From IMG/VR virus record IMGVR_UViG_3300045988_134552, positions 1 to 31,948 of that record: a DNA stretch of 31,948 bases; one strand, given 5' to 3'. Below the pieces are notes generated by a model. It was not told where the DNA came from and did not search any database. It was given only the letters and a program-made list of their open reading frames with translations. Shown here piece after piece: positions 1,914 through 31,948 of the stretch (position 1 is its first letter; every line of letters starts with the position of its first letter). Position numbers and translations under genes: made by a program. Source of the DNA: a virus.

Positions 1914-2041
1914 TGGCGAAGATCTACTTCGAAGCGGTCAAGGAAGGGAAGCGGACGCTTGAGAGCGTCCCGAAGCGCTGGCGCACTGCCGTCGCAGCAA
2001 TGCTCGAAGCATCTAAAAAAGACACTGACCAGGAGGAATAA
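1913..2041 (+). CDS. Small protein (42 aa), possibly XkdX-like, preceding the holin.
   Basis: ATG overlaps the upstream TGA. Sequence MAKIYFEAVKEGKRTLESVPKRWRTAV... Size, position before the holin and a Y..VK.G..T.E.V pattern resemble the XkdX family. Confidence 0.3.
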   Translation: MAKIYFEAVKEGKRTLESVPKRWRTAVAAMLEASKKDTDQEE

Positions 2042-2045
2042 TCAA

Positions 2046-2465
2046 ATGGATCTCGCACCTATTTACACGTTTACCGAGCAGCAGGTATGGGCTATCGCTG
2101 GCGCATTCATCCTCATGCTCTTCGACATGGTGAGCGGCATCATTCAGGCAGTCATGAACCGTGAGTTCCGCAGCTCCACGATGCGCACCGGTCTCGGCCA
2201 CAAGGCGGTGCTGGCACTTATCATCCTGCTCGCAATCTGCATCGAAATCCTCAGTTCCCACGTTGCCGGTCTTGGCTTCGGCGGCGTGACCATCTACGTG
2301 GTCTGCGTCGCGATCATCATCATGGAGGTCGCGAGCATCATGGAGAACCTCTGCAAGGCTTATCCCGAGCTTGCAGACCTTCCGGTCATGAAGATCTTCG
2401 AGCATGCGGACGCGGACGCGGTCAACCCTAAGACGGTCGCAGATGAAGTGTACAAGCGCGGCTAG
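2046..2465 (+). CDS. Holin (phage_holin_4_1 / TcdE-like, multi-TM).
   Basis: AGGAGG 9 nt upstream of ATG 2046. Hydrophobic TM segments. ...NREFRSSTMRTGLGHK... and ...ENLCKAYPELA... are typical of this holin family. Confidence 0.7.
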   Translation: MDLAPIYTFTEQQVWAIAGAFILMLFDMVSGIIQAVMNREFRSSTMRTGLGHKAVLALIILLAICIEILSSHVAGLGFGGVTIYVVCVAIIIMEVASIMENLCKAYPELADLPVMKIFEHADADAVNPKTVADEVYKRG

Positions 2466-3147
2466 GCTCCGGCTCGCGGCAGCGCTGCTTCTTGGCATTG
2501 CAGCTGGCTTCAGCGCTTGGATCGGCATTGCAGCTCAGCATGTGCAGTCAGACAGCATAAGCAGCGTTAAGACATACGAGCGCGGCTACAGTGACGGATT
2601 GCAGGACGCACAGCCGATTTATGACAAAAATGCTTCGGAAAAGAGCGGCTATATGCCGCTCTTTTTGCAGAAAGACCCACAATGGGCATCTACCGCCTAT
2701 AGCGACGAGACCATAGGCACCTACGGGTGCGGGCTCACGTGTGCCGCCATGGCGCTGAGCAACGAGCGGGGTGTGCCGGTGACACCTGATGCCCTCGCAA
2801 ACATCGTCGGAGAGACGTGCCTAACAGACCGAGTAAACGATATGGCGAAGTTCACGCAGTTCGCCCATGACAGATACGGATACGACCGAGTTGACACCTT
2901 CTGGGACACTGATAGCGCCCTCGATTATGTCGACGATGGATGGATCGTATTTGCTGGCGTCAGCGGACAGCTAGGAGACCGCGAATACGGTAGCCATGTC
3001 GTAATGATCTGGCGTGCGAACGATGACGGGACGTATGCGCTACGTGACCCGGACGATGGAGCCAACTCAATTAAATCATGGACAAGAGGAGAGCTTGAAG
3101 TCGCCTGCTTCGGATCATTCAACGCAATTAGAGGTGACATACGATGA
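2443..3147 (+). CDS. Signal-anchored (SAR-like, Gly/Ala-rich TM) C39-like cysteine peptidase; putative second lysin.
   Basis: N-terminal AARLRLAAALLLGIAAGFSAWIGIAAQ, then Q...GTYGCGLTCAAMAL (Gln/Cys catalytic arrangement of Peptidase_C39-like domains). Overlaps the holin 3' end; start 2443 or 2404. Confidence 0.55.
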   Translation: MKCTSAARLRLAAALLLGIAAGFSAWIGIAAQHVQSDSISSVKTYERGYSDGLQDAQPIYDKNASEKSGYMPLFLQKDPQWASTAYSDETIGTYGCGLTCAAMALSNERGVPVTPDALANIVGETCLTDRVNDMAKFTQFAHDRYGYDRVDTFWDTDSALDYVDDGWIVFAGVSGQLGDREYGSHVVMIWRANDDGTYALRDPDDGANSIKSWTRGELEVACFGSFNAIRGDIR

Positions 3148-4172
3148 CGATGAAGGGCATCGATATATCTGATTTTCAGCGAGGTCTCGACCTCACTAAA
3201 ATCGATTACGATTTCGTATTCTGCAAGGCGACCGAGGGCATCGATAAGGTTTATTCGACTTGCGACCCGTTTATCCAGACGGCGATCAGTCAGAAGAAGC
3301 TCTATGGCTTCTACCATTTCCTTGACCAGTCCGACCCGGTAAAGCAGGCCGAGTTCTTCTACGCCAACTGCAAGAACTACTTTGGCCGCGGCATCCCGAT
3401 GCTCGACTATGAAGCCTACGGTCGCATTGGAACTGATAAGGCGAAGCTGTTCCTGGATAAGATCTACGAGCTCACCGGTGTTCGCTGCATCGTCTATATG
3501 AGCCGAAGCGTCACCACGGAGGAAGACTGGTCACAGATTGCAAAGAACCACGCACTCTGGGTCGCGCAGTACGCCGACCGCAACGACACTGGATACCAAG
3601 ATTCTCCTTGGCTTCCTGATGGTGGATTCGGTGCCTGGAACAGCTGCGTCATCCATCAATACTCTTCTCACGGACGATTGAACGGGTATGACAAATACCT
3701 CGATCTCGACATCGCATACATGGACAAGCAAGCATGGTTTAAGTATGTTCATGGTGAACAGGCCGGGAATGCTGGCGCGGCTGTGGTTTGCCCCGTTGGT
3801 TCTACGCCTGATCTCGCTGCGGCGGTCATGCGAGGTAAGTACGGCAACGGTGAAGAGCGCAAGGCCAAGCTTGGCGCTCGATTCAACGAGGTTCAAGCCC
3901 TTATAAATCGTGTGGCTACCGCAAGTGCCGACGATCTTGCAGCAGACGTGCTCAACGGAAAGCTTGGCAACGGCGAGACGCGCAAGGCGATTCTTGGTGC
4001 CCGCTATGACGAGGTGCAAGCTGTGGTCAATTCCCGTGCAAACAATGTGGACATCGACGCTCTAGCACGCGCCGTCATTCGTGGTGAGTACGGTGACGGC
4101 GAAGCGCGCCGCGCCAAACTCGGAGTCAATTTCAATGCGGTTCAAAAACGAGTAAACGAACTTCTCAAGTAG
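3144..4172 (+). CDS. Endolysin: GH25 muramidase + 3 x CW_7 cell-wall-binding repeats (Cpl-7-like).
   Basis: N-terminal GIDISDFQ...KATEG...YGFYHF (GH25). Three ~45-aa repeats of the form VxRGxYGNGExRKAxLGxxxxxVQxxxN. Confidence 0.85.
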   Translation: MTMKGIDISDFQRGLDLTKIDYDFVFCKATEGIDKVYSTCDPFIQTAISQKKLYGFYHFLDQSDPVKQAEFFYANCKNYFGRGIPMLDYEAYGRIGTDKAKLFLDKIYELTGVRCIVYMSRSVTTEEDWSQIAKNHALWVAQYADRNDTGYQDSPWLPDGGFGAWNSCVIHQYSSHGRLNGYDKYLDLDIAYMDKQAWFKYVHGEQAGNAGAAVVCPVGSTPDLAAAVMRGKYGNGEERKAKLGARFNEVQALINRVATASADDLAADVLNGKLGNGETRKAILGARYDEVQAVVNSRANNVDIDALARAVIRGEYGDGEARRAKLGVNFNAVQKRVNELLK

Positions 4173-5024: not shown

Positions 5025-6500
5025 TCATGTACGAATCAGTGTTATTATGCAAAACCAGTTATTGGAGACTTTGATTTCGCGCCCATTGGCGGCTATCGTA
5101 GGGTTCGCAAAGATTTTCTGAGGCTCCACCATTGGATTATTAGACGAACCCTTTTTGGGGTTCGTCTTTTTTTGTTTCGGCTGGAAGTCATCGCCACAGT
5201 AATCGAAGGCGAAGTAAAGCTTGAGTTCATCCCCATCTACTTCAATGAGCCGCACGAACGTATCGATGATTTCTGCCGCGTCTGGTTCCTGTGCGATGTG
5301 ATCGAGCCAAGCGGCTATGTCTTCACCGGACAGGTGCGCACTTTCGCTAGCCTGAGCCTGCCGCAGGTCAGCTTCTAAGGCCGCTTTCTGCTCGCGGAGC
5401 ATATCAACGCGCTCTTTACCGCCGGGCGGTGCTATGCCGTCCTCAATAGCCTGCCAGATACGCTCAAATGCAGCGTCTATGCGCTTGATCTCGCGCTCAA
5501 TGCGCTTGCTCTCCGGTTCCTCCTTCTCTTCATTAATTTCGTCGTAAAGAGCCATTGCGTCAACGATGCGCTGACGTACATCCGGCTTCTTAATCGTTTC
5601 GAGGACGGTGTCGAGCACGGCTTCCTCGACGGCATCACGCCTAAAGGTGCGGCGGCATTTCTTGCACTTGTAGTAGTGGTAGACGCGTCCCGTTTTTGAC
5701 GTGCCGCAGGTGCCAACGTAATACTGGCCGCACTCTGGGCACCACATCTTGCCAGACAACGGATAATCGTTGGTGTCACGTGTCTTGTTGTGCTTGCGCC
5801 CGTTTGAACCCAAAATGCTGTTGATCATGTCCTGGTCTTCACGCGACCAAAGCGCGGGCATGCCGTCTTCGATTCGCACGCCCGCGTAATCGTAAACGCC
5901 GCAGTTCTGTTCGCGCCTGAGCAGCTTTGTTATCACGCCATGCGTCAACGGTTTGCCGCGCTTGCCGCGTTCACCTGCGACGGCACGCTTGATTTCGGCA
6001 ACGGTCGATCCGGCAAAGAGCATGTTTTTCATACGGTGCATCACGGCGGCTTCACGCTCGTTGACCTCGTAATACCCGTTAACGATGTCCCAGCCGTAAT
6101 GAGTGCGACCGTTCGCCATGCCGCGCTGGGCGTTCTTGTTGATTCCGTCTCGGATACGCTCGCTGTCGATTGCGCTTTCCCATTCAGCAAGTACCTCGAG
6201 CATGCCAAGGTTGAGCACGCGCGTTGAGCCTTCGCCAAGGCTCTCGCCGGCATAAAGTATTTCAACACCTGCTTTGCGCAACTTGATACGCGCGAGCGCC
6301 ATTTCATCGCGGTTACGCATAATGCGCGTGACCTTATAGATAACTACATAATCAAATATTCCGAGCTTTGCGTCTTTCATCATCGCTGCCCCAGATTCCC
6401 ATGACCTGTATGTGTACTTGTTAACGCCGATTCTCTCAGCAAACTCATCCCTGTTTGAGTAACCAGCGGCTTTTCTGAGCTTCATAAGCCTAATGTTCAC
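5025..6500 (-). CDS. Chimeric XRE-HTH::large serine recombinase. The catalytic Ser N-terminal half of the resolvase domain is missing, replaced by ~45 aa of Cro/cI-type HTH; the recombinase, zinc-ribbon and coiled-coil domains are intact. Likely not an active integrase.
   Basis: N-terminus MKLRKAAGYSNRDEFAERIGVNKYTYRSWESG is an HTH_XRE match, joined directly to ...FDYVVIYKVTRIMRNRDEMALARIKLRKAGVEIL... (second half of the resolvase catalytic domain). Downstream are a recombinase domain, CPECG...CKKCRR zinc ribbon and coiled coil. The 5' ~150 nt is AT-rich, unlike the rest. Start GTG 6500 with AGGAGA RBS. Confidence 0.6.
   Translation of the reverse strand: MNIRLMKLRKAAGYSNRDEFAERIGVNKYTYRSWESGAAMMKDAKLGIFDYVVIYKVTRIMRNRDEMALARIKLRKAGVEILYAGESLGEGSTRVLNLGMLEVLAEWESAIDSERIRDGINKNAQRGMANGRTHYGWDIVNGYYEVNEREAAVMHRMKNMLFAGSTVAEIKRAVAGERGKRGKPLTHGVITKLLRREQNCGVYDYAGVRIEDGMPALWSREDQDMINSILGSNGRKHNKTRDTNDYPLSGKMWCPECGQYYVGTCGTSKTGRVYHYYKCKKCRRTFRRDAVEEAVLDTVLETIKKPDVRQRIVDAMALYDEINEEKEEPESKRIEREIKRIDAAFERIWQAIEDGIAPPGGKERVDMLREQKAALEADLRQAQASESAHLSGEDIAAWLDHIAQEPDAAEIIDTFVRLIEVDGDELKLYFAFDYCGDDFQPKQKKTNPKKGSSNNPMVEPQKIFANPTIAANGREIKVSNNWFCIITLIRT
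5142..5177 (+). terminator. Strong plus-strand intrinsic terminator embedded in the 3' end of the minus-strand recombinase ORF.
   Basis: 10-bp perfect stem AGACGAACCC / GGGTTCGTCT, loop TTTTTG, then T6-G-T3. The reverse complement has no T-tract, so it is + strand specific. Confidence 0.6.
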
Positions 6501-6618: not shown

Positions 6619-6648
6619 TTGCTAAGGAGATTAGCAGCTAGCTAATAT
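6619..6648 (+). promoter_or_regulatory. Candidate rightward promoter P1 (TTGCTA-18-TAATAT).
   Basis: Sigma-70-like hexamers read directly. Upstream of the tandem operator repeat and the cro-like gene. Confidence 0.35.
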
Positions 6649-6770
6649 TTCTCGGGTAAACCCGTGAAATATACGGGTGTTCTCATTGACAAGCAATTAG
6701 AACACCCGTATATTTCTCGGGTAAACCCGTGAAATATACGGGTGTTCTCATTGACAAGCAATGAGAACAC
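6645..6770 (+). repeat. Tandem 65-bp direct repeat (~1.9 copies). Each unit holds a 12-bp-arm palindrome centred on a TTGACA hexamer; putative operators O1 (6677-6705) and O2 (6742-6770).
   Basis: Units 6645-6709 and 6710-6770 are identical except one base. GTGTTCTCATTG-acaag-CAATGAGAACAC is perfect in O2 and has one mismatch in O1. Confidence 0.75.
6686..6714 (+). promoter_or_regulatory. Candidate rightward promoter P2 (consensus TTGACA-17-TATATT). Its -35 lies inside operator O1 and its -10 is formed by the start of repeat copy 2.
   Basis: Exact TTGACA at 6686-6691, 17-nt spacer, TATATT at 6709-6714. Directed toward the cro-like gene at 6799. Confidence 0.55.
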
Positions 6771-7120: not shown

Positions 7121-7510
7121 ATGTATGGAACCCAACAGCAAACCAACGGTTTGCGTCGTGGTTTTGACGAGGGGAAGTCACCGCAGGCTCGATGTTGCGC
7201 AGGTGGCATTTTGCCGGCGCGTCAAGGCTTTGATGCAAGCTTGCGAAATGAAAGCGCCCGCACCTGGCGGCAACCGGGTACGGGCTGTGTCAAAACTATC
7301 CCCAGTGATGACAACGAGAATTCTACACCATTAGCAACGGTTAAGCGGTGGTTTTGCGTCGCTATTGCCGTGCTAGCGGCAACGGGAATCCTGCCAATCG
7401 CCCTGGCTGGTGCCATTATCTGGCTTACCGAAGCATACAACCTGCCTTGGCTACCGTTCGTCCTTGCTGGGCTTGAGCTTTGGGCAATCGTCCGATTGGT
7501 CGACCAATGA
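7121..7510 (+). CDS. Hypothetical protein with C-terminal TM helices.
   Basis: AAGGAGGGG RBS 6 nt before ATG 7121. The hydrophobic C-terminal half is convincing, the N-terminal half less so. Confidence 0.4.
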   Translation: MYGTQQQTNGLRRGFDEGKSPQARCCAGGILPARQGFDASLRNESARTWRQPGTGCVKTIPSDDNENSTPLATVKRWFCVAIAVLAATGILPIALAGAIIWLTEAYNLPWLPFVLAGLELWAIVRLVDQ

Positions 7511-8598: not shown

Positions 8599-9028
8599 AG
8601 ACGTGCACGAGCAGGCGCAAGAGCCTATGGCGTGGTTCCAGCACGACGGCAACGCGCAGCAGGACATCAAATGCCAACGGCTGCTCATGCGTCGCGGTAA
8701 CGAGGGCTACGGAGCCTACTGGCGGCTGTGCGAGCTTCTGGCGAGCACCAAGCACCACTCAATCGCCGTGGACACCGATGAAGACTGGCTCATTCTCGCC
8801 GGCGCGATCGGTATGCGCTCGATGGGTGCCTTTGACGAGACGGTGAGCATCGCCGAGACGCGCGATTTCATCGACTGCCTGCTCGAGATCGGCTTGCTCG
8901 TTAGGGACGGAAAAGGTCACATCGAGAGCGAGAGGATGTGCAAAAACGCCCTTTATTTTGGCAAGCAGCGCGTCAACGGAGCAAAGGGCGGCAGGCCGAA
9001 GAAGAAGCAGGAAAACCCGCAAGACTAG
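8582..9028 (+). CDS. DUF4373 (Lin1244/Lin1753-like) replisome-organizer N-terminal domain protein.
   Basis: WFQHDGNAQQDIKCQRLLMRRGNEGYGAYWRLCELL fits the YFPHDSNARND.K...L....G.EGYG.YW.LLE pattern of phage replisome organizers. Basic GGRPKKK C-terminal tail. GGAGGTGA RBS. Confidence 0.6.
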   Translation: MTAIPKDVHEQAQEPMAWFQHDGNAQQDIKCQRLLMRRGNEGYGAYWRLCELLASTKHHSIAVDTDEDWLILAGAIGMRSMGAFDETVSIAETRDFIDCLLEIGLLVRDGKGHIESERMCKNALYFGKQRVNGAKGGRPKKKQENPQD

Positions 9029-9039
9029 CAGGTCAGAGC

Positions 9040-9355
9040 ATATGTTTGTGTTGTTGCGGATTGTAACCAGCGCGAAACCATCGGTTTTAGGCTGGGCTAA
9101 GCCTAACAATACATAACATAACAATACAGAAGCGGGTTTTTGGGTTTGGGTCTTTAGACCCTAACCCAAAGCCAAAAACCCGCACTTGCTTGTTATGTTG
9201 ACTTACAAGCAAGGTTCTTCTTTCTTGCTTCTTCTTTCTTGAGCGATTCGTTTTTCGAGCGATTCCAGAGCCTGTTTTTGAGCTTTCAACAGTAGTTATC
9301 AACAGGTTATCAACAAGTTTTCAACAATAGCAGAGTTTTCAACAAAGGAGCGTTG
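9040..9355. promoter_or_regulatory. Repeat-dense non-coding region; putative origin of replication and/or early control region. Contents: 20-bp palindrome at 9087-9106; long imperfect hairpin at 9132-9183; CTTGCTTG/CAAGCAAG hairpin at 9185-9214; tandem TTCTTCTTTCTTG x2 at 9215-9241; GAGCGATTC x2 at 9241-9265; five TCAACA iterons at 9286, 9299, 9310, 9321 and 9339 (spacings 13, 11, 11, 18 bp).
   Basis: All read directly. Iterons on a helical repeat just downstream of a replisome-organizer gene are typical of phage origins. Confidence 0.45.
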
Positions 9356-11189: not shown

Positions 11190-11385
11190 GGTCTCCGGTT
11201 GCTGCGACGGATGCGGCAAGGAAGCCGACTGCACCAACATTAACGAATTCGCAAGGGTGCACGCCTATGACAAGGGCAAGCTGGTCGAGTTCGACATTTG
11301 CAAGAACTGCGTTCACGAGATTTGCGACATGTCGGGTAGCGTTATCGACGTCGTACGTGAATTGAAGCGCCGCCATGGACGTTGA
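11182..11385 (+). CDS. Cys-rich small protein (CCDGCG...C...CKNC).
   Basis: GGAGAGGGA RBS before ATG 11182. Confidence 0.4.
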   Translation: MIKVSGCCDGCGKEADCTNINEFARVHAYDKGKLVEFDICKNCVHEICDMSGSVIDVVRELKRRHGR

Positions 11386-12559
11386 GGTCAAGCGCGACCC
11401 AAAGGGCGTGTGGTACGCGCAGCCGTACCTTGGCAAGGCACCGGACGGGCGGCAGATACGGCCACGTCGTAGCTTCCCGGATGCCAGGACGCGCGATGAA
11501 GCGCAGGCTTTGGCCGATGCCTGGGCTTCGCACCTGACCCTTGACGGCAAGGTCAAGAGCACGCTCATAGTCGACCTGCTTTGGGAGTACATCGAGCAGA
11601 GGATGGTGAAGGGCGTGAGCCTTAACACCGTGAAGAGGTGGTCGCTCTTCACCCGAACCTACGTTGGAAAGTATCTCAAGGGCAAAGTCGCTCGAGACCT
11701 TACCGCTATCGAGCTGAACGACTTCGAGACGCGCCTTGGCGTGAGCAAGAAGGGCGGCGGGCAGGGTCTTTCGCGCAACACGATTATCAGCGTTCACCAC
11801 TTTTTGCGCGGCGCATACAACTTCTGGGTGCGCATCGGCATCTGCGAGAACAACCCAATGCTCATGGTCACAAAGCCGCCGGAGGAACGCCATGAGGCCG
11901 TGAGCATCGACGAATGGGATTACAGGGAGCTCGATGCCACGGTCTGCGAAAAGCTCGACCTTGAGATGCCCGAGAAGCGCTTCATGCGCCAATCGGCCTA
12001 CGCTTTCGCCGCCTGGCTCGCCCTGCATACGGGGATGCGCGTCGGCGAGGTGTGCGCCGTAAGGCGGCGCGACCTCCACCGCGCACAGGGCTTCATCCTC
12101 GTGAGCGGAACGGTCATTGAGATTCCGGGCGGCGGCGTGGCCCGTTCCAACGTGACCAAGAACAAGAAGACGCGGCCCGTGGCGCTAATCGACGAAGAGT
12201 GGGAGCGGATAAGAGCCTATCTCGCGCAACAGGATTCGATTTCAGACGCTTTCACGCCCGATTCGCCACTGGTGAGCGTAGACGGCTCATACATGCGCCC
12301 CACGACCGTCTCAAAGGCTTTCAGCCGTGCTCGCGACCGGGCGGGCATGCCGAAGGCGTACACGTTCCACTCATTGCGCCATACGCACGCCACGTGGTGC
12401 CTTGCCAACGGCGTTGACCTCAAGACGCTCGCAGATCGCTTAGGGCACTCGAACGAAGCGACAACGCTGAAACTCTACGCGCACCTTCTGCCGGGGCGCG
12501 ACCAGGCTGCGGCGCAGGCGTTCAACAGTTTCGCCAAGAAGCTCGGGGACGGAGTGTAA
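11375..12559 (+). CDS. int: Tyrosine recombinase / phage integrase (394 aa) with an N-terminal arm-binding-type domain; appears intact.
   Basis: C-terminal HSLRHTHATWCLANGVDLKTLADRLGHSN...TLKLYAHLL contains the R...HxxR...Y catalytic signature region. N-terminal KGVWYAQPYLGK..GRQIRPRRSF.DARTRDEAQ resembles integrase N-terminal (arm-type) domains. Confidence 0.8.
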   Translation: MDVEVKRDPKGVWYAQPYLGKAPDGRQIRPRRSFPDARTRDEAQALADAWASHLTLDGKVKSTLIVDLLWEYIEQRMVKGVSLNTVKRWSLFTRTYVGKYLKGKVARDLTAIELNDFETRLGVSKKGGGQGLSRNTIISVHHFLRGAYNFWVRIGICENNPMLMVTKPPEERHEAVSIDEWDYRELDATVCEKLDLEMPEKRFMRQSAYAFAAWLALHTGMRVGEVCAVRRRDLHRAQGFILVSGTVIEIPGGGVARSNVTKNKKTRPVALIDEEWERIRAYLAQQDSISDAFTPDSPLVSVDGSYMRPTTVSKAFSRARDRAGMPKAYTFHSLRHTHATWCLANGVDLKTLADRLGHSNEATTLKLYAHLLPGRDQAAAQAFNSFAKKLGDGV

Positions 12560-12687
12560 ACGGTGTGTAAATGGCAAGACCTCAGCCATTTGCAGCACGT
12601 CACGAAAATGGGAGGTCAGATAGCGAAACCGATGGTTTTGGAACGGTTAGCCGCCGTATTCCAAGTAAGAATCAGGAGATACCGAGA

Positions 12688-13014
12688 ATGGTACCGAAAT
12701 TGACTGCCGAACAAAGGCGTGCAGCCCTCGATAAGGGGATGCAGATCAGGCTCAAGAGAGCTGAGTACAAGGCCAAGCTCAAGAACGGCTTGATGTCCGT
12801 TGAGCAGTTCTTTGAGTTGGCGGACAGCGGCGAGCAGGCCGCGTCGGGCATGCGTGTCGAATCGCTGATTAGGTCGATGCCCGGTTACGCGGTGCCGCGA
12901 ACCGAACAGCTCATGAAGCGTCTGCGCATCAGTGCGAGCCGCCGAGTGAAGGGATTGGGGTACGTCCAGCGAGAGGGGCTTATCAAGGCTCTTGGGGGTG
13001 GATGCCGTGAGTAG
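12688..13014 (+). CDS. mihF: Actinobacterial-type integration host factor (mIHF/sIHF) homologue.
   Basis: LTAEQRRAALDKG...RAEYKAKLKNG...MRVESLIRSMPGYAVPRTEQLMKRLRISASRRVKGLGYVQREGLIKAL aligns along its length with mycobacterial mIHF, recalled from memory. CAGGAGA RBS 8 nt upstream. Confidence 0.65.
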   Translation: MVPKLTAEQRRAALDKGMQIRLKRAEYKAKLKNGLMSVEQFFELADSGEQAASGMRVESLIRSMPGYAVPRTEQLMKRLRISASRRVKGLGYVQREGLIKALGGGCRE

Positions 13015-23086: not shown

Positions 23087-25693
23087 GTGGCTGTCACGTA
23101 CAAAGGTCTGACTATCAAGTTCGGCGGAGATACGACCGAGTTGCAAGGCGCGTTGAAGAGCGTGCAGAGCACGGCGAAGGATACACAGGGGGCGTTGAAG
23201 GACATCAATCGCGCCCTGAAATTCGACCCCGGTAACACGGATTTGCTCGTTGAGAAGGAAAAGCTTCTGAACCGAGCGTACGGCGAGACGAAAGCGAAGC
23301 TCGATGCCTACAAGGCTGCGCTTGCGACGCTCGACGAGAAGAAGCGCAGCGGCGCTGCACTTACCGAGCGCGAGGAAGCGCAGTATTCTAGTCTCAAGGC
23401 GCAAATAGCCATTTGCGAAAACCAGCTTGAGAGCTATTCGGACGATCTTAAGAGCGTCAGCCGCGAAGCCCAGGCATCGAAGAGTAGCCTTTACCAGTTC
23501 GGGCAGACAATCCAAGACAACAGCGACAAGCTGGAGAAGGCCGGCAAGGGTCTTGAGGCTGCCGGAAAGACGATCACCGGTGCCGTCACCGGCACTGCCA
23601 CCGCACTTGTCGGGCTTGCCAGCAGCCAAGAAGAGCAGATCGAGCAGACGCACCAGCTGGACGCCGCCTGGAAGGATGCAGGCGGAACGTCCGAGCAGGC
23701 GCGAAACTCCTATACGCTCTTCTACAAACTGCTTGGAGAAGAGGACACCGCGACCGAGGCCGCGCAGAACCTGTCCCGTCTGACCACCAACCAGCAGGAG
23801 CTGGACAAGTGGAACAACATCGCCGCAGGCTCGTTCTCCAAGTTCGGCGATGCCCTGCCGCTCGAAAATCTCGTGGAAGCATCGCAGGAGACGGCACATA
23901 CCGGCACCGTCACCGGCGGTCTTTCCGATGCCCTCAACTGGGCAACGGCGAGCAACGAGCAGTGGAGCGCCGCGCTCTCCGGCAACCAGGCGGCACAGCA
24001 GGCTTTCAATGACCAGATCGCGCAGGGCGCTACCAAAGAGGACGCTTTCAACGCCGCCCTTGCCGCCTGCGGTGACGAGCAGGAGCGATCTTCGCTCATC
24101 ACCCAAACGCTCGATGGGCTTTACGGCAACATCGGCGAGACGTACCAGGAGACGAACAAAACGATGCTCGACACGCGCGAAGCGCAGGCCGAGTTAAACC
24201 AGAAGATGGCAGAAGCCGGCGAAGCCGCCATGCCCTTCAAGGAGAAGGCGCTCGAGCTTGGGACGACCTTGCTTGAGAAGGTAACGCCGGCGCTTGAGAG
24301 CGTTAGCGACTGGTATAAGTCTTTAACGCCCGAGCAGCAGGACATGGCAACCAACGTCGTGTTGGGGACGGTCGCGTTCGGCGGGCTCACAACCGGCATC
24401 GGCAAGACGCTCCAAAAGGGCGTCGAAATCGGGCAGACGTTCAAGGATGTTGCGGGCGGCTTCGCATCGCTCACCGGCAAGTTCGGCGAGGGCGGCGGCA
24501 CTATCAGCACTGCTGCAACAGGCTTCGGCAGCATCGCCAAGAAGGCTGGCGGACTGGCTACTACTCTTGGTGGCAAGCTCTCGACGGGATGGACATCGTT
24601 CACCGGATTGATTGCCGCAAATCCCATCTTGCTTGGCGTTGCAGCGGTTGCCGCCGCCGTCGCTGGCCTTACGTGGTTCTTCACGCAGACCGAGACGGGC
24701 AAGCAGCTCTGGTCTGATTTCACTGGCTGGATCTCGGAAAAATGGCAAGGCGTGCAGGATTTCTTTGCAGGCGTGCCGGATTTCTGGTCTGGTATTTGGG
24801 ACGGTATAACAGGCAAGGCAGAGGAGGTCAAAACCAGCCTTGGCGAGAAATTCGACGGGATAAGGCAAGGCGCGTCCGATGCTTGGGAAAATCTGAAATC
24901 CAACGCGTCCGATGCTTGGGAAAATCTGAAATCCAACGCGTCCGAAAAATTCGGTGCAATCAGGGATTCGATTCAAACAGATATGGAGACTGGCAAGGTT
25001 GTCGGTTCTTCGGCTTCAAACGCCCTCAAAGCCGCTATGAACGGAGATTGGGACGCGGCGAAGTCGCAAGCCGGTATCGCCTTTCAAGCCATCCAGAGCA
25101 ACATCCAAACGAAGATGGACAATGCGAAAACCAACGCGATAAACGCCGGAAACGCCATCGGCGAAAAGCTTGGGTTCCCCGGACTTGGAAGCAAGGTCGC
25201 TGGCGTTTTTGCCACGATCAAAAGCAACATCACTTCGCCGATCAACGATGCCTGGAACTTCGTGAGCGGCATCCCCGGCAAGATTCAGGGCGCATTCAGC
25301 GGAATCCGAATCAGCTTGCCGCATATCAATATGCCGCACTTCAGCGTCAGCTGGCGCGACATCGGCGGTGTTGTGAAATTGCCGTCCATCAGCGTCAATT
25401 GGTATGCAAAAGGCGCATCTTTCGATAAGCCTTCAATCATCGGCGTTGGCGAAGCAGGACTTGAGCACGTCACGCCCGATGCCAAGCTGCGCACAAGCGT
25501 CAGAGAGAGCGTCGAAGCGGGCATTTCTCGCGTGCTCGACCGCCTAAGCGGAGGCTTCGGTGGCGGTGCTCAGGTGAACGTGACCGTCAACGCGACTGTC
25601 GCGAACAATATGGACGCGTACGCGACAGGCCAGCAGATCGGCGCTGGGATTGCCAGCAGGTTAAAGCAGAAGGGAGTGCCCGTTGGAGCTTAA
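23087..25693 (+). CDS. Tape measure protein (868 aa).
   Basis: AAGAGGTGG RBS and GTG start. Long coiled-coil N-terminal part; Gly-rich TM-like central segment; position. Confidence 0.85.
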   Translation: MAVTYKGLTIKFGGDTTELQGALKSVQSTAKDTQGALKDINRALKFDPGNTDLLVEKEKLLNRAYGETKAKLDAYKAALATLDEKKRSGAALTEREEAQYSSLKAQIAICENQLESYSDDLKSVSREAQASKSSLYQFGQTIQDNSDKLEKAGKGLEAAGKTITGAVTGTATALVGLASSQEEQIEQTHQLDAAWKDAGGTSEQARNSYTLFYKLLGEEDTATEAAQNLSRLTTNQQELDKWNNIAAGSFSKFGDALPLENLVEASQETAHTGTVTGGLSDALNWATASNEQWSAALSGNQAAQQAFNDQIAQGATKEDAFNAALAACGDEQERSSLITQTLDGLYGNIGETYQETNKTMLDTREAQAELNQKMAEAGEAAMPFKEKALELGTTLLEKVTPALESVSDWYKSLTPEQQDMATNVVLGTVAFGGLTTGIGKTLQKGVEIGQTFKDVAGGFASLTGKFGEGGGTISTAATGFGSIAKKAGGLATTLGGKLSTGWTSFTGLIAANPILLGVAAVAAAVAGLTWFFTQTETGKQLWSDFTGWISEKWQGVQDFFAGVPDFWSGIWDGITGKAEEVKTSLGEKFDGIRQGASDAWENLKSNASDAWENLKSNASEKFGAIRDSIQTDMETGKVVGSSASNALKAAMNGDWDAAKSQAGIAFQAIQSNIQTKMDNAKTNAINAGNAIGEKLGFPGLGSKVAGVFATIKSNITSPINDAWNFVSGIPGKIQGAFSGIRISLPHINMPHFSVSWRDIGGVVKLPSISVNWYAKGASFDKPSIIGVGEAGLEHVTPDAKLRTSVRESVEAGISRVLDRLSGGFGGGAQVNVTVNATVANNMDAYATGQQIGAGIASRLKQKGVPVGA
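24872..24937 (+). repeat. Perfect 33-bp tandem duplication inside the tape measure gene (ASDAWENLKSN x2).
   Basis: GCGTCCGATGCTTGGGAAAATCTGAAATCCAAC occurs twice back to back. Confidence 0.9.
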
Positions 25694-30448: not shown

Positions 30449-31948
30449 ATGAGCAAGACGCACATCGCCGATCACGAAACGCTCGAGCGCGTCGCAATCG
30501 CGCTCGAATCCATGGGGGCTTCAACAGTCCCCATTTTTAATGACGAGACTGGACGTTATACGAATGCAAGCATCACTGCATGGCTCGCGAAGATGCGCGA
30601 CGGCAAGAACTACGGCGTTAGTATCCCAAAGGGGAGTGCCACGGCCTGCACCAAGACCGGAGCAAACGCCGGAATCGCGAATCCTAAGCCCGGCGTAATC
30701 GGTCGCGCGGCAATCGACCCGTACGTTAACCACGGCGCGTTCACCTTCTTCGAGGTGAACGGCGGCGTTGATGCGGACGGAACGCCTTATGTCACCGCAA
30801 TCGACGGTGACGGGCGCTTCTCGCGCAAGGACGACACGTGGATCATGACGCCCGTTCTCTACACGCTTGAAACCGAGACGGACGATGCCGTAAACCTCAC
30901 CGTCTCGGACACACGCCAGCCGGGCATGAAGCGGCAGCCCGCCGCACTGCTGCCGAACGGTGCGCAGCGTCCTTATATGTTGTATGCAAAGTATGCACTG
31001 TCGGTCGATGCCGAAGGCAAGCCGCGAAGCGTGAGCGGCGCGCAGGTGAAGCGCTTCGTAAGCCACGATACCGGCGTCTCGCTCATGAAAACGGCAACGA
31101 AGGGTGATTCATTCAAAACTGCCGCCGATGACTGGTATGTCAAGGTCATGTTCCTCTTGAAGTATGCCACCAAGAACAGCCAGAGCGTGTTCGCGGGCTG
31201 CACGGGATACGACGTACAGATGATCCCGACCGTGGCAGAGAGCAACACCACGCGCGTCGTGGTCGCGAAGGAGAAGGCCGATCAGATTCTTATCGGCTCT
31301 TCGATGATTCTGGGAACACATACGGGCACGTCGAACGACCGTGGCAATGGCTACAACTATGACGTGTTCGATGCCGCGACCGTTATCAAGAAGGTCGATA
31401 TCGACGCATCGAACACAGCCATATACTTCGACGTCGCGAAGCCGTTCACGACTGCCACCACATACCTTTTGAGCACCGTCCCGTGGAGGGCTGGCGCTTG
31501 CGATGCGGTTGAGGGCGACGGATCGCCGACGAGCTGCACGGACGGAAAGCAGCCCTTTGTCGTTCAGGGTATCGAGCTCGGCCTTGGAATGCTTGAGGTT
31601 CTTGGAAACGTCCTAATCCAGTACACAGGTACTGGCGCGGTCGTTTACGTGAACCCGGACACTAAGAACGAGAAGGCCGGCAGCTCACCGGACAGCGCGC
31701 TGTCTGCCGGGGCTTTTCCCGGACAAGCAGCTGAGGGATGGAATTACGCTCTTTACTGCAAGACGGTCAACGGCCTGATGATTCAGCAGGGAACGGGTGC
31801 GTCGACTTCAGTTGGCATCTGCGACGGCAACTACAAGGTCGCTGACACTACCGTCGGTTGGAGAGAGTGGCCTTCTCTCGGCCGCTTGGGGAACTGGGCT
31901 AACGGCGGTCTTTGGTTCGTTAACGGCTACAACGGCACCGGCAACGCC
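30449..31948 (+). CDS. DGR target gene (N-terminal ~500 codons). Putative receptor-binding/tail-fibre protein with a C-terminal C-type lectin-fold VR. Continues to the stop at 135-137 after the circular junction; ~519 aa in total.
   Basis: ATG 30449 directly after the upstream stop. The frame was verified open to the window end. Last gene of the tail module. VR copy at 31873-31948. Confidence 0.75.
   Translation, partial: MSKTHIADHETLERVAIALESMGASTVPIFNDETGRYTNASITAWLAKMRDGKNYGVSIPKGSATACTKTGANAGIANPKPGVIGRAAIDPYVNHGAFTFFEVNGGVDADGTPYVTAIDGDGRFSRKDDTWIMTPVLYTLETETDDAVNLTVSDTRQPGMKRQPAALLPNGAQRPYMLYAKYALSVDAEGKPRSVSGAQVKRFVSHDTGVSLMKTATKGDSFKTAADDWYVKVMFLLKYATKNSQSVFAGCTGYDVQMIPTVAESNTTRVVVAKEKADQILIGSSMILGTHTGTSNDRGNGYNYDVFDAATVIKKVDIDASNTAIYFDVAKPFTTATTYLLSTVPWRAGACDAVEGDGSPTSCTDGKQPFVVQGIELGLGMLEVLGNVLIQYTGTGAVVYVNPDTKNEKAGSSPDSALSAGAFPGQAAEGWNYALYCKTVNGLMIQQGTGASTSVGICDGNYKVADTTVGWREWPSLGRLGNWANGGLWFVNGYNGTGNA

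Follow-up and report, generated by a model that had tools for sequence, protein, structure and literature searches.

Does a phage that carries an integrase-type gene directly followed by a gene for an integration host factor (IHF) use the two to enter the chromosome of its host? The question is raised by an IMG/VR virus record (IMGVR_UViG_3300045988_134552), of which positions 1 to 31,948, hereafter the window, were analysed as a whole (31,948 nucleotides). The window holds an open reading frame (ORF) for a tyrosine recombinase (11375-12559), a 128-bp spacer (12560-12687), and an ORF for an IHF of actinobacterial type (12688-13014). These limits agree exactly with those given in a preliminary description of the sequence, which took the two genes for the phage's own integration module and the spacer for a possible part of its attP. 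We find that lysogenic integration is carried out by a large serine integrase at another site, and that the tyrosine recombinase is a conserved second recombinase—i.e. it is not the lysogeny integrase. Together with the IHF, it might form a second site-specific recombination module of the early region that resembles cer or loxP in resolving multimers, with the IHF as bending protein, a reading to which we assign a probability of about 45%.

The tyrosine recombinase and the adjoining IHF

The recombinase ORF (plus strand, 394 amino acids) is the final gene of the rightward early block and encodes an enzyme of the heterobivalent Int type (lambda/Tn916 type), with matches to PF00589 (3.6e-26) and to the PHROG 1 integrase family (3.5e-61). 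Neither the 13 orthologues compared, whose identity goes down to 43%, nor 29 database homologues show any change at residues R222, K262, H332, R335, H358, and Y368, and the enzyme is, judged by this hexad, catalytically intact. The preliminary description had also given it an N-terminal domain of arm-binding type. No Pfam arm-domain match is found in the protein, and an arm-binding-like domain is supported by an AlphaFold 2 (AF2) model (predicted local distance difference test score, pLDDT, 83), which places a beta3-alpha fold within residues 5-52 (strands 5-7, 13-15, and 32-34 and helix 40-52, with pLDDT of 85-91 there). Upon superposition, the best folds for the model as a whole are Tn1549 Int and full-length lambda Int.

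The closest protein matches to the recombinase in GenBank phages are only ~25-29% identical and include no orthologue, an exact-protein look-up returned no record, and none of 50,697 GenBank phages matched an 11-kb piece of the window by megablast, so that a cultured relative was not at hand. In metagenomes, the recombinase family comprises at least 628 clusters. Three other identities for the gene were considered and rejected: a protelomerase (the Int motifs are ordinary and a long palindrome is absent), an integron-like integrase (matches are partial, C-terminal, and far under cutoff), and the cargo of a nested mobile element (the gene is syntenic in every relative found).

The second ORF (plus strand, 108 amino acids) scores 94 bits with the NCBIfam model NF041260, 'integration host factor, actinobacterial type', whose cutoff is 60 (residues 2-102 align with profile positions 2-101/102), and 54 bits with Pfam PF22525 (H2TH_5; cutoff 27, 1.5e-14). 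Residues 2-104 align end to end with the nucleoid-associated proteins sIHF (PDB 4itq, 2.3e-15) and mIHF (PDB 6tob, 4.7e-14), and G89, L90, and G91 of the RRV(K/R)GLG segment are conserved or invariant in an alignment of phage and cellular proteins. The profile searches thus bear out the earlier assignment, and the protein is, by these alignments, a full-length member of the actinobacterial IHF family.

Its closest cellular relatives, some of them from Coriobacteriia, are chromosomal mihF genes in a pyr-mihF-gmk(-rpoZ) context, with 46-50% identity (48-50% for those of Coriobacteriia); for two of them (P0036 and P0224) the order reads pyr genes, mihF, gmk, rpoZ. The window gene lacks this context and is flanked by the recombinase and SSB. 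The host therefore carries an mIHF copy of its own, and the phage gene is an old xenologue rather than the host orthologue. Among 50,697 GenBank phage records, the sole detectable homologue is that of Saccharomonospora phage PIS 136 (34% identity), already annotated there as 'integration host factor MihF'; it does not lie beside an integrase, and the phage is unrelated and much larger (94.9 kb). The Collinsella copies are already named IHF by the NCBI pipeline.

Of 119 loci, 107 have an IHF homologue no more than 2.5 kb downstream of the recombinase; these loci represent about half of the lineages. A comparison of window 12688-13014 with seven related loci (L001, L002, L004, L008, L038, L040, and L041) reveals sharply distinct IHF alleles (56-63%, 74%, and 83-100% identity), though the flanking genes are >90% identical, a pattern that points to alleles having been replaced repeatedly or to the phage IHF being under diversifying pressure.

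A separate attachment site for lysogeny

The check proposed for the earlier reading was to locate the ends of integrated copies. In every integrated relative having host flank among the 36 genome loci, homology to the window starts at 5112-5124, so that all integrated copies place attP at a location different from the int-IHF spacer. In the window family, the host junction is the 3' end of tRNA-Ala(CGC) or of tmRNA; these two ends are alike and both are used by one phage family, while remoter relatives are found at other tRNAs, namely Lys (L056) and Asp (L061). Alignment of the window attP (5101-5151) with attL leaves a single shared block, CTCCACCA (5124-5131), which corresponds to the 3' end of the RNA gene. 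Right junctions from IMG/VR proviruses read as P-arm, CTCCACCA, then host terminator, with attR and its host flank present in L104, L105, and L107. This core is 6.3 kb from the recombinase-IHF pair, and no copy of the recombinase repeat motif described below is found near it.

The core lies inside the last ~35 codons of a large serine integrase gene. In attP, 16 nt separate the motif GGGTTCG from the core; in the half-site of the tRNA or tmRNA gene, the distance is 11 nt. A 5-bp motif shift of this kind between attP and attB has been described for serine-integrase sites (PMC3783163). An apparent dyad partner, CGAACCC (5145-5151), is weak evidence, since it is also half of a terminator hairpin in P' and B' lacks the motif. 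On these junctions, lysogenic integration is done by the large serine integrase at 5124-5131. The enzyme shares with large serine integrases of the A118/LI, Bxb1, and phiC31 type the Resolvase, Recombinase, and zinc-ribbon domains and the short common core, and the half-site motif shifted by 5 bp may be a further likeness; it differs from them in its target, as the 3' ends of tRNA and tmRNA genes are a class typical of tyrosine integrases, and in that its gene is truncated and fused in the window. As a separate observation, the attP core falls within the integrase ORF (window 5025-5131; L038 3313-4797; L040 3296-4822), and integration therefore swaps the last ~33 residues for codons derived from the host tRNA or tmRNA gene; the C-termini of the free and integrated enzymes would thus differ, which is reminiscent of integration-dependent control.

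In the window, a single reading frame (5025-6500, minus strand) joins the N-terminal helix-turn-helix of a cI-like repressor to the serine integrase. Specifically, Pfam finds HTH_3 at residues 5-37 of the fusion, followed by Resolvase at profile positions 53-144 only, so that ~70 N-terminal residues of the integrase, including the catalytic serine, are missing. Relatives have a separate repressor of 108-112 amino acids and an integrase of 494-508 amino acids with the motif AAIYARFSS, and intact serine integrases with the catalytic domain (Resolvase, Recombinase, and zinc-ribbon domains) are present in L038, L040, L190, and L192. BLAST coordinates place a 484-bp in-frame deletion in the window relative to related genomes, with its junction near 6376-6383 and 8 bp of microhomology. 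The cI/cro intergenic region carries a 65-bp tandem duplication rich in inverted repeats (6645-6705 and 6710-6770, 98% identical), single-copy in relatives, which may be an operator or promoter change that accompanied the repressor deletion. The window genome is probably unable to integrate or to maintain lysogeny and is probably a virulent or integration-defective variant.

The window is itself a free circle: bases 1-77 repeat 31872-31948 exactly, and because of this end repeat we read the assembly as a circularly closed phage genome of ~31.87 kb and not as a chromosomal segment. The tyrosine recombinase, its site, and the IHF are intact in this genome, which fits a role in lytic growth and is not proof of one. 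The preliminary description was right that the pair is embedded among early genes, with Lin1244_N/DnaD-like and DUF3310-like genes before it and SSB, dUTPase, HNH, and terminase genes after it. It had further remarked that the pair is not at the usual junction of lysis and integrase genes; that junction is not vacant, as the serine recombinase gene occupies it.

The enzyme at the prophage end varies among relatives, while the mid-genome recombinase stays. In all of them, the genes for Lin1244_N, DUF3310, the tyrosine recombinase, (small ORFs), IHF, SSB, dUTPase, HNH, and terminase follow one another in this order. The prophage-end enzyme is a serine integrase in most cases (the window family, L056, L061, L190, and L192). 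The Atopobium fossor prophage L064 has at this end an unrelated tyrosine integrase that abuts tRNA-Cys; in L033, another tyrosine integrase is the first ORF of the contig; and L030, L034, and L065 have weaker second tyrosine-recombinase matches to hidden Markov models near the start of the locus. It is this exchange of the boundary enzyme around a constant recombinase that identifies the product of 11375-12559 as a second recombinase and not the lysogeny integrase.

Contigs that might be split within the int-IHF spacer were gathered with the protein, the repeats, the spacer (16 metagenome contigs), and the core as search patterns; among >200 related contigs none is split there, and all are collinear. 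One 65.7-kb contig that seemed to hold a tandem prophage proved to be one region reported twice. As such, the spacer does contain DNA resembling a recombination site, as had been suggested, and it is not the attP that prophages use.

A tripartite cis-module after the recombinase stop codon

Aligning the DNA that follows the recombinase stop codon across lineages uncovered a module of three parts that spans ~125 bp. It begins with two direct repeats, candidate arm-type or accessory sites: GTGTAAACGG at 12554-12563, which includes the recombinase stop codon, and GTGTAAATGG at 12565-12574, which starts 11 bp after the start of the first (both plus strand). The window has only these two perfect copies, each genome has one pair, and in IMG/VR this pair is confined to the phage family of the window. 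Diverged lineages carry a different repeat, also twice, at the same place and with a 10-11-bp phase (GTGTAAAYGG, GACTGACAA, AGTTGCAAT, GTGWGCCAAA, TTGTTGCAAT, GTCGGGATG, and CTGACAATT). In the 3 lineages tested, the direct repeats are found only upstream of the palindrome that ends the module—i.e. on the gene side.

Midway between repeats and palindrome, and like the repeats only on the recombinase side of the core, is a GAGGTCA box (12612-12618, plus strand), a putative bend or accessory site. The form (C)GAGGT(C/G/A)A recurs at an equal relative position in lineages with 50-73% recombinase identity, including L064, where inserted genes have displaced the entire module 2.4 kb downstream as a unit.

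The third part is a core-like palindrome, CCGTATTC CAAGTAA GAATCAGG (12654-12676, plus strand, 8-7-8), a candidate crossover site that is unique in the window, ends 11 nt before the IHF ATG, and has arms complementary at 6 of 8 positions. Other lineages have perfect arms around the spacer GAAGTAA (CCTGATAA/TTATCAGG, ACAGATAA/TTATCTGT, and GTAGATAA/TTATCTAC), with compensatory changes on both arms, and the palindrome lies 98-124 bp from the end of the recombinase ORF. Repeats and core are single-copy in each genome. A scan of IMG/VR on DNA alone with the 17-mer core GATAAGAAGTAATTATC returned 114 stretches. Among the 80 listed, a recombinase orthologue immediately precedes the core in 71, usually at 98-124 bp (median 124), 7 are too short to assess, and 2 have none (71/73 assessable); the latter two (L233 and L255) are unrelated AT-rich phages and were set aside as chance matches.

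The preliminary description had pointed to another element of the spacer, an inverted repeat read as 8-9-8. We find AAATGGC-N9-GCCATTT (12569-12575 and 12585-12591), a 7-9-7 repeat whose eighth pair sets T opposite G, and it is probably not functional. Perfect repeats with 7-bp arms occur 87 times in the window compared with ~22 in mononucleotide shuffles, the spacer fold has a z of -0.5, and close relatives change the right arm without compensation; the repeat is no more than chance would give. The evidence for a recombination site is found in the tripartite module and not in the repeat named earlier.

Possible roles of the second recombinase

Recombination between copies of its own site is the role we favour for the recombinase, because catalysis is conserved, the enzyme is heterobivalent, each circle has one complex site with accessory DNA on one side, and no host junction ever falls in this site. 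Resolution sites such as cer/psi and the Tn4430 IRS are built in this way, from one core with accessory DNA to one side, and mIHF is known as the accessory factor of a heterobivalent actinophage integrase, that of mycobacteriophage L5. Under this proposal, recombinase protomers would occupy the core and both direct repeats, with the ~90 bp in between bent by the phage mIHF. A genome dimer or multimer, or two co-resident related genomes, would supply two sites, which would then be synapsed and exchanged within the 7-bp spacer. Replicating circles would in this way return to monomers, as with cer/Xer, Tn4430 IRS/TnpI, and loxP/Cre, and a by-product would be the swapping of genome arms between related phages.

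Mosaic junctions in related genomes are consistent with such exchange. For example, L001 is a clean two-parent recombinant in which 66 consecutive informative sites are of window type across the scanned interval 12484-12665 and sites are of L059 type from 12673, which puts the change of parent within 12666-12672, where the 7-bp spacer has its edge. In other cases the left flanks are nearly identical, and a different allele begins on their right at 12673-12691. These junctions are only supportive, because homologous recombination in a conserved intergenic block gives the same picture and explains them equally well.

Several further observations weigh against recombination between site copies. 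About half of the recombinase lineages have no IHF; where small ORFs intervene, the IHF shows closer coupling to SSB than to the recombinase; and IHF alleles are exchanged independently of the recombinase (56-100% compared with 93-96% identity). The core is imperfect in the window lineage and drops to 4-5 of 8 positions in some sister lineages, and the palindrome, which extends over the ribosome-binding site of the gene that follows, could be an operator. No recombination product of the site was observed directly. Moreover, a cos-type phage, as suggested by HNH adjoining terminase, packages from concatemers and has no evident need for multimer resolution, and heterobivalent Int-type enzymes are classically integrases, not resolvases.

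These observations make a regulatory role the main rival. The recombinase would then be mainly a DNA-binding regulator of the IHF-SSB-late block, and the IHF an unrelated replication, packaging, or nucleoid factor that happens to lie nearby. In keeping with this, the palindrome stands at the head of the downstream gene even where it is displaced from the recombinase (L064), and the IHF is start/stop-coupled to SSB in L190 and adjoins HNH/terminase in L210. A precedent is found in Bacillus phage SPbeta, which has the serine integrase SprA and also a protein of tyrosine-recombinase fold, MrpR, that binds repeated phage DNA elements, has lost catalysis, and acts as master repressor (PMC10516654). 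The two phages are alike in that a temperate phage with a serine integrase also carries a protein of this fold. By contrast, the recombinase studied here keeps every catalytic residue, is located in a lytic early block, and belongs to a phage that has a cI/cro pair of the ordinary kind. Six catalytic residues that stay invariant over deep divergence argue against regulation as its sole function. Furthermore, scans of the spacer found no sigma-70-like promoter or terminator and its RNA fold does not exceed shuffles, and half-sites 15 bp apart in an 8-7-8 arrangement are unusual for helix-turn-helix operators. Overall, we consider a mainly regulatory recombinase unlikely.

Integration might also be retained as a back-up, in which the spacer would be a genuine attP that serves only occasionally, or only in different hosts, at a secondary attB with a matching 7-bp spacer sequence. 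The architecture of an integrase with arm sites and IHF, and the keeping of GAAGTAA/CAAGTAA across lineages, would suit such a role. Yet the collinear contigs include no split prophage, the arm-type repeats are one-sided, and the recombinase belongs to the rightward early lytic block, apart from the leftward lysogeny genes. We therefore regard back-up integration as very unlikely.

The original proposal, that integrase and phage IHF are an L5-like machinery with the spacer as attP for the host chromosome, can draw on an intact heterobivalent integrase, a genuine mIHF next to it, arm-like repeats and a core-like palindrome in the spacer, and a serine integrase inactivated in the window genome. 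It is nonetheless largely refuted for lysogeny, and most improbable, given that the integrated relatives with host flank, like all the viral and metagenomic relatives examined, run collinearly through the spacer, that prophages end at 5124-5131 where the repeats have no copies, and that relatives keep a separate boundary integrase. Lastly, it is scarcely credible that the IHF or the neighbouring SSB is the directionality factor of the serine integrase and the adjacency of the tyrosine recombinase incidental: no directionality factor was identified in the window and such factors are recruited from among early or replication proteins, one of them SSB-like (PMC11795197), but evidence of interaction is absent, an IHF also occurs where the boundary integrase is a tyrosine enzyme (L033), and several serine-integrase lineages have none (L056 and L061).

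The proposed resolution module can be compared with two groups of known systems. It resembles L5 Int with host mIHF in its heterobivalent recombinase, its adjacent pairs of arm-type repeats, and a bending factor of the mIHF family. The L5 factor, however, is host-encoded and serves chromosomal integration at a tRNA gene, whereas here the factor is phage-encoded, the repeats of the site are one-sided, the site is never a prophage junction, and integration falls to another enzyme. With Xer at cer/psi, TnpI at the Tn4430 IRS, and Cre at the P1 loxP, it shares a single site beside the gene, inverted arms, and a spacer of 6-8 bp. Accessory DNA is one-sided in cer and IRS, as in the phage module, and loxP is an exchange hotspot between related genomes. 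These enzymes have no arm-binding N-terminal domain and employ PepA, ArgR, or ArcA as accessory proteins, or none, unlike the phage recombinase with its IHF. The analysis shows the identities of the genes, the true att site, the conserved and covarying cis-module, its linkage to the gene as one copy per genome, and that it does not serve as a prophage junction; which protein binds which element, the part played by the IHF, and resolution as the function are inferred. No description of a second-recombinase module was found in the literature searched.

More broadly, and tentatively, the module could belong to a widespread, undescribed accessory system of temperate gut phages, in Coriobacteriia and in lower-GC lineages, in which a heterobivalent recombinase, a one-sided complex site, and in many lineages the phage's own mIHF act on phage DNA. 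Such a system would resolve multimers and swap early and late arms between co-resident phages, which is conceivable because the 7-bp spacer is conserved between lineages that are only ~50% identical, and would thus be an engine of mosaicism; we hold this wider claim to be doubtful. If the module works as proposed, many abundant human-gut prophages would carry two independent site-specific recombination systems with different jobs, and annotation that names both 'integrase' would mislead the prediction of prophage boundaries and the mining of att sites. The conserved crossover spacer offers a concrete, testable mechanism for the sharp junctions between early and late modules in these phages, and the module lends itself to the question of why a phage should bring its own version of a nucleoid protein with which the host is already equipped. 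Recombinase, site, and bending protein also make up a compact Actinomycetota set that can be tested as a genetic tool, and tools for gut Coriobacteriia are few.

The spacer also contains a composite AAACC-N3-GGTTT palindrome (12626-12649, minus strand), probably an operator-type rather than a recombination site. The composite form WAACC-N6/7-AAACC-N3-GGTTT has three copies, all in early intergenic regions (7140-7164, 9064-9087, and 12626-12649, in minus, plus, and minus orientation), and a looser form occurs 4 times (3 of them early intergenic), with 0.39 expected. Copies at syntenic places are found only in relatives of the window lineage, and in the lineage with 73% identity the central triplet changes alike at two sites. 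An invertible segment between 9064-9087 and 12626-12649 was considered and rejected, given the collinearity of all loci and the third copy at 7140; the sites are more likely to be operators of a regulator.

The gene content of the window is that of a temperate HK97-like siphophage of gut Collinsella. Relatives with 59-96% recombinase identity are integrated in genomes of Collinsella, Senegalimassilia, and other Coriobacteriaceae, and remoter ones are found in Eggerthella, Atopobium, Olsenella, and Rubneribacter. A holin and two lysis enzymes (1959-4172) are followed by the leftward recombinase/repressor block and the rightward early block, then by SSB, dUTPase, a late regulator, HNH, terminase, portal, protease, capsid, and tail genes. 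Scans of the window for tRNAs and against Rfam found none.

Among other features, the window carries a diversity-generating retroelement (1-105, 211-315, and 491-1669; the first 77 nt equal 31872-31948). Its variable repeat, found 3'-terminally in a tail-region ORF running across the contig junction, is 90% identical to the template repeat, 8 of 11 differences fall at template adenines, and a reverse transcriptase gene (PF00078) comes next. A long non-coding stretch after the Lin1244_N/DnaD-like gene (9028-9353), with an AT-rich run and a hairpin at 9132-9183 (20-bp arms, 95% complementary), is a candidate replication origin. ORF 23087-25693, probably the tape measure gene, contains a perfect 33-bp tandem duplication (24871-24936). 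In the relative L190, the variable early region directly upstream of the recombinase includes a gene of the Acb2/Tad1-hairpin family (8947-9168), a family of anti-CBASS/Thoeris sponges.

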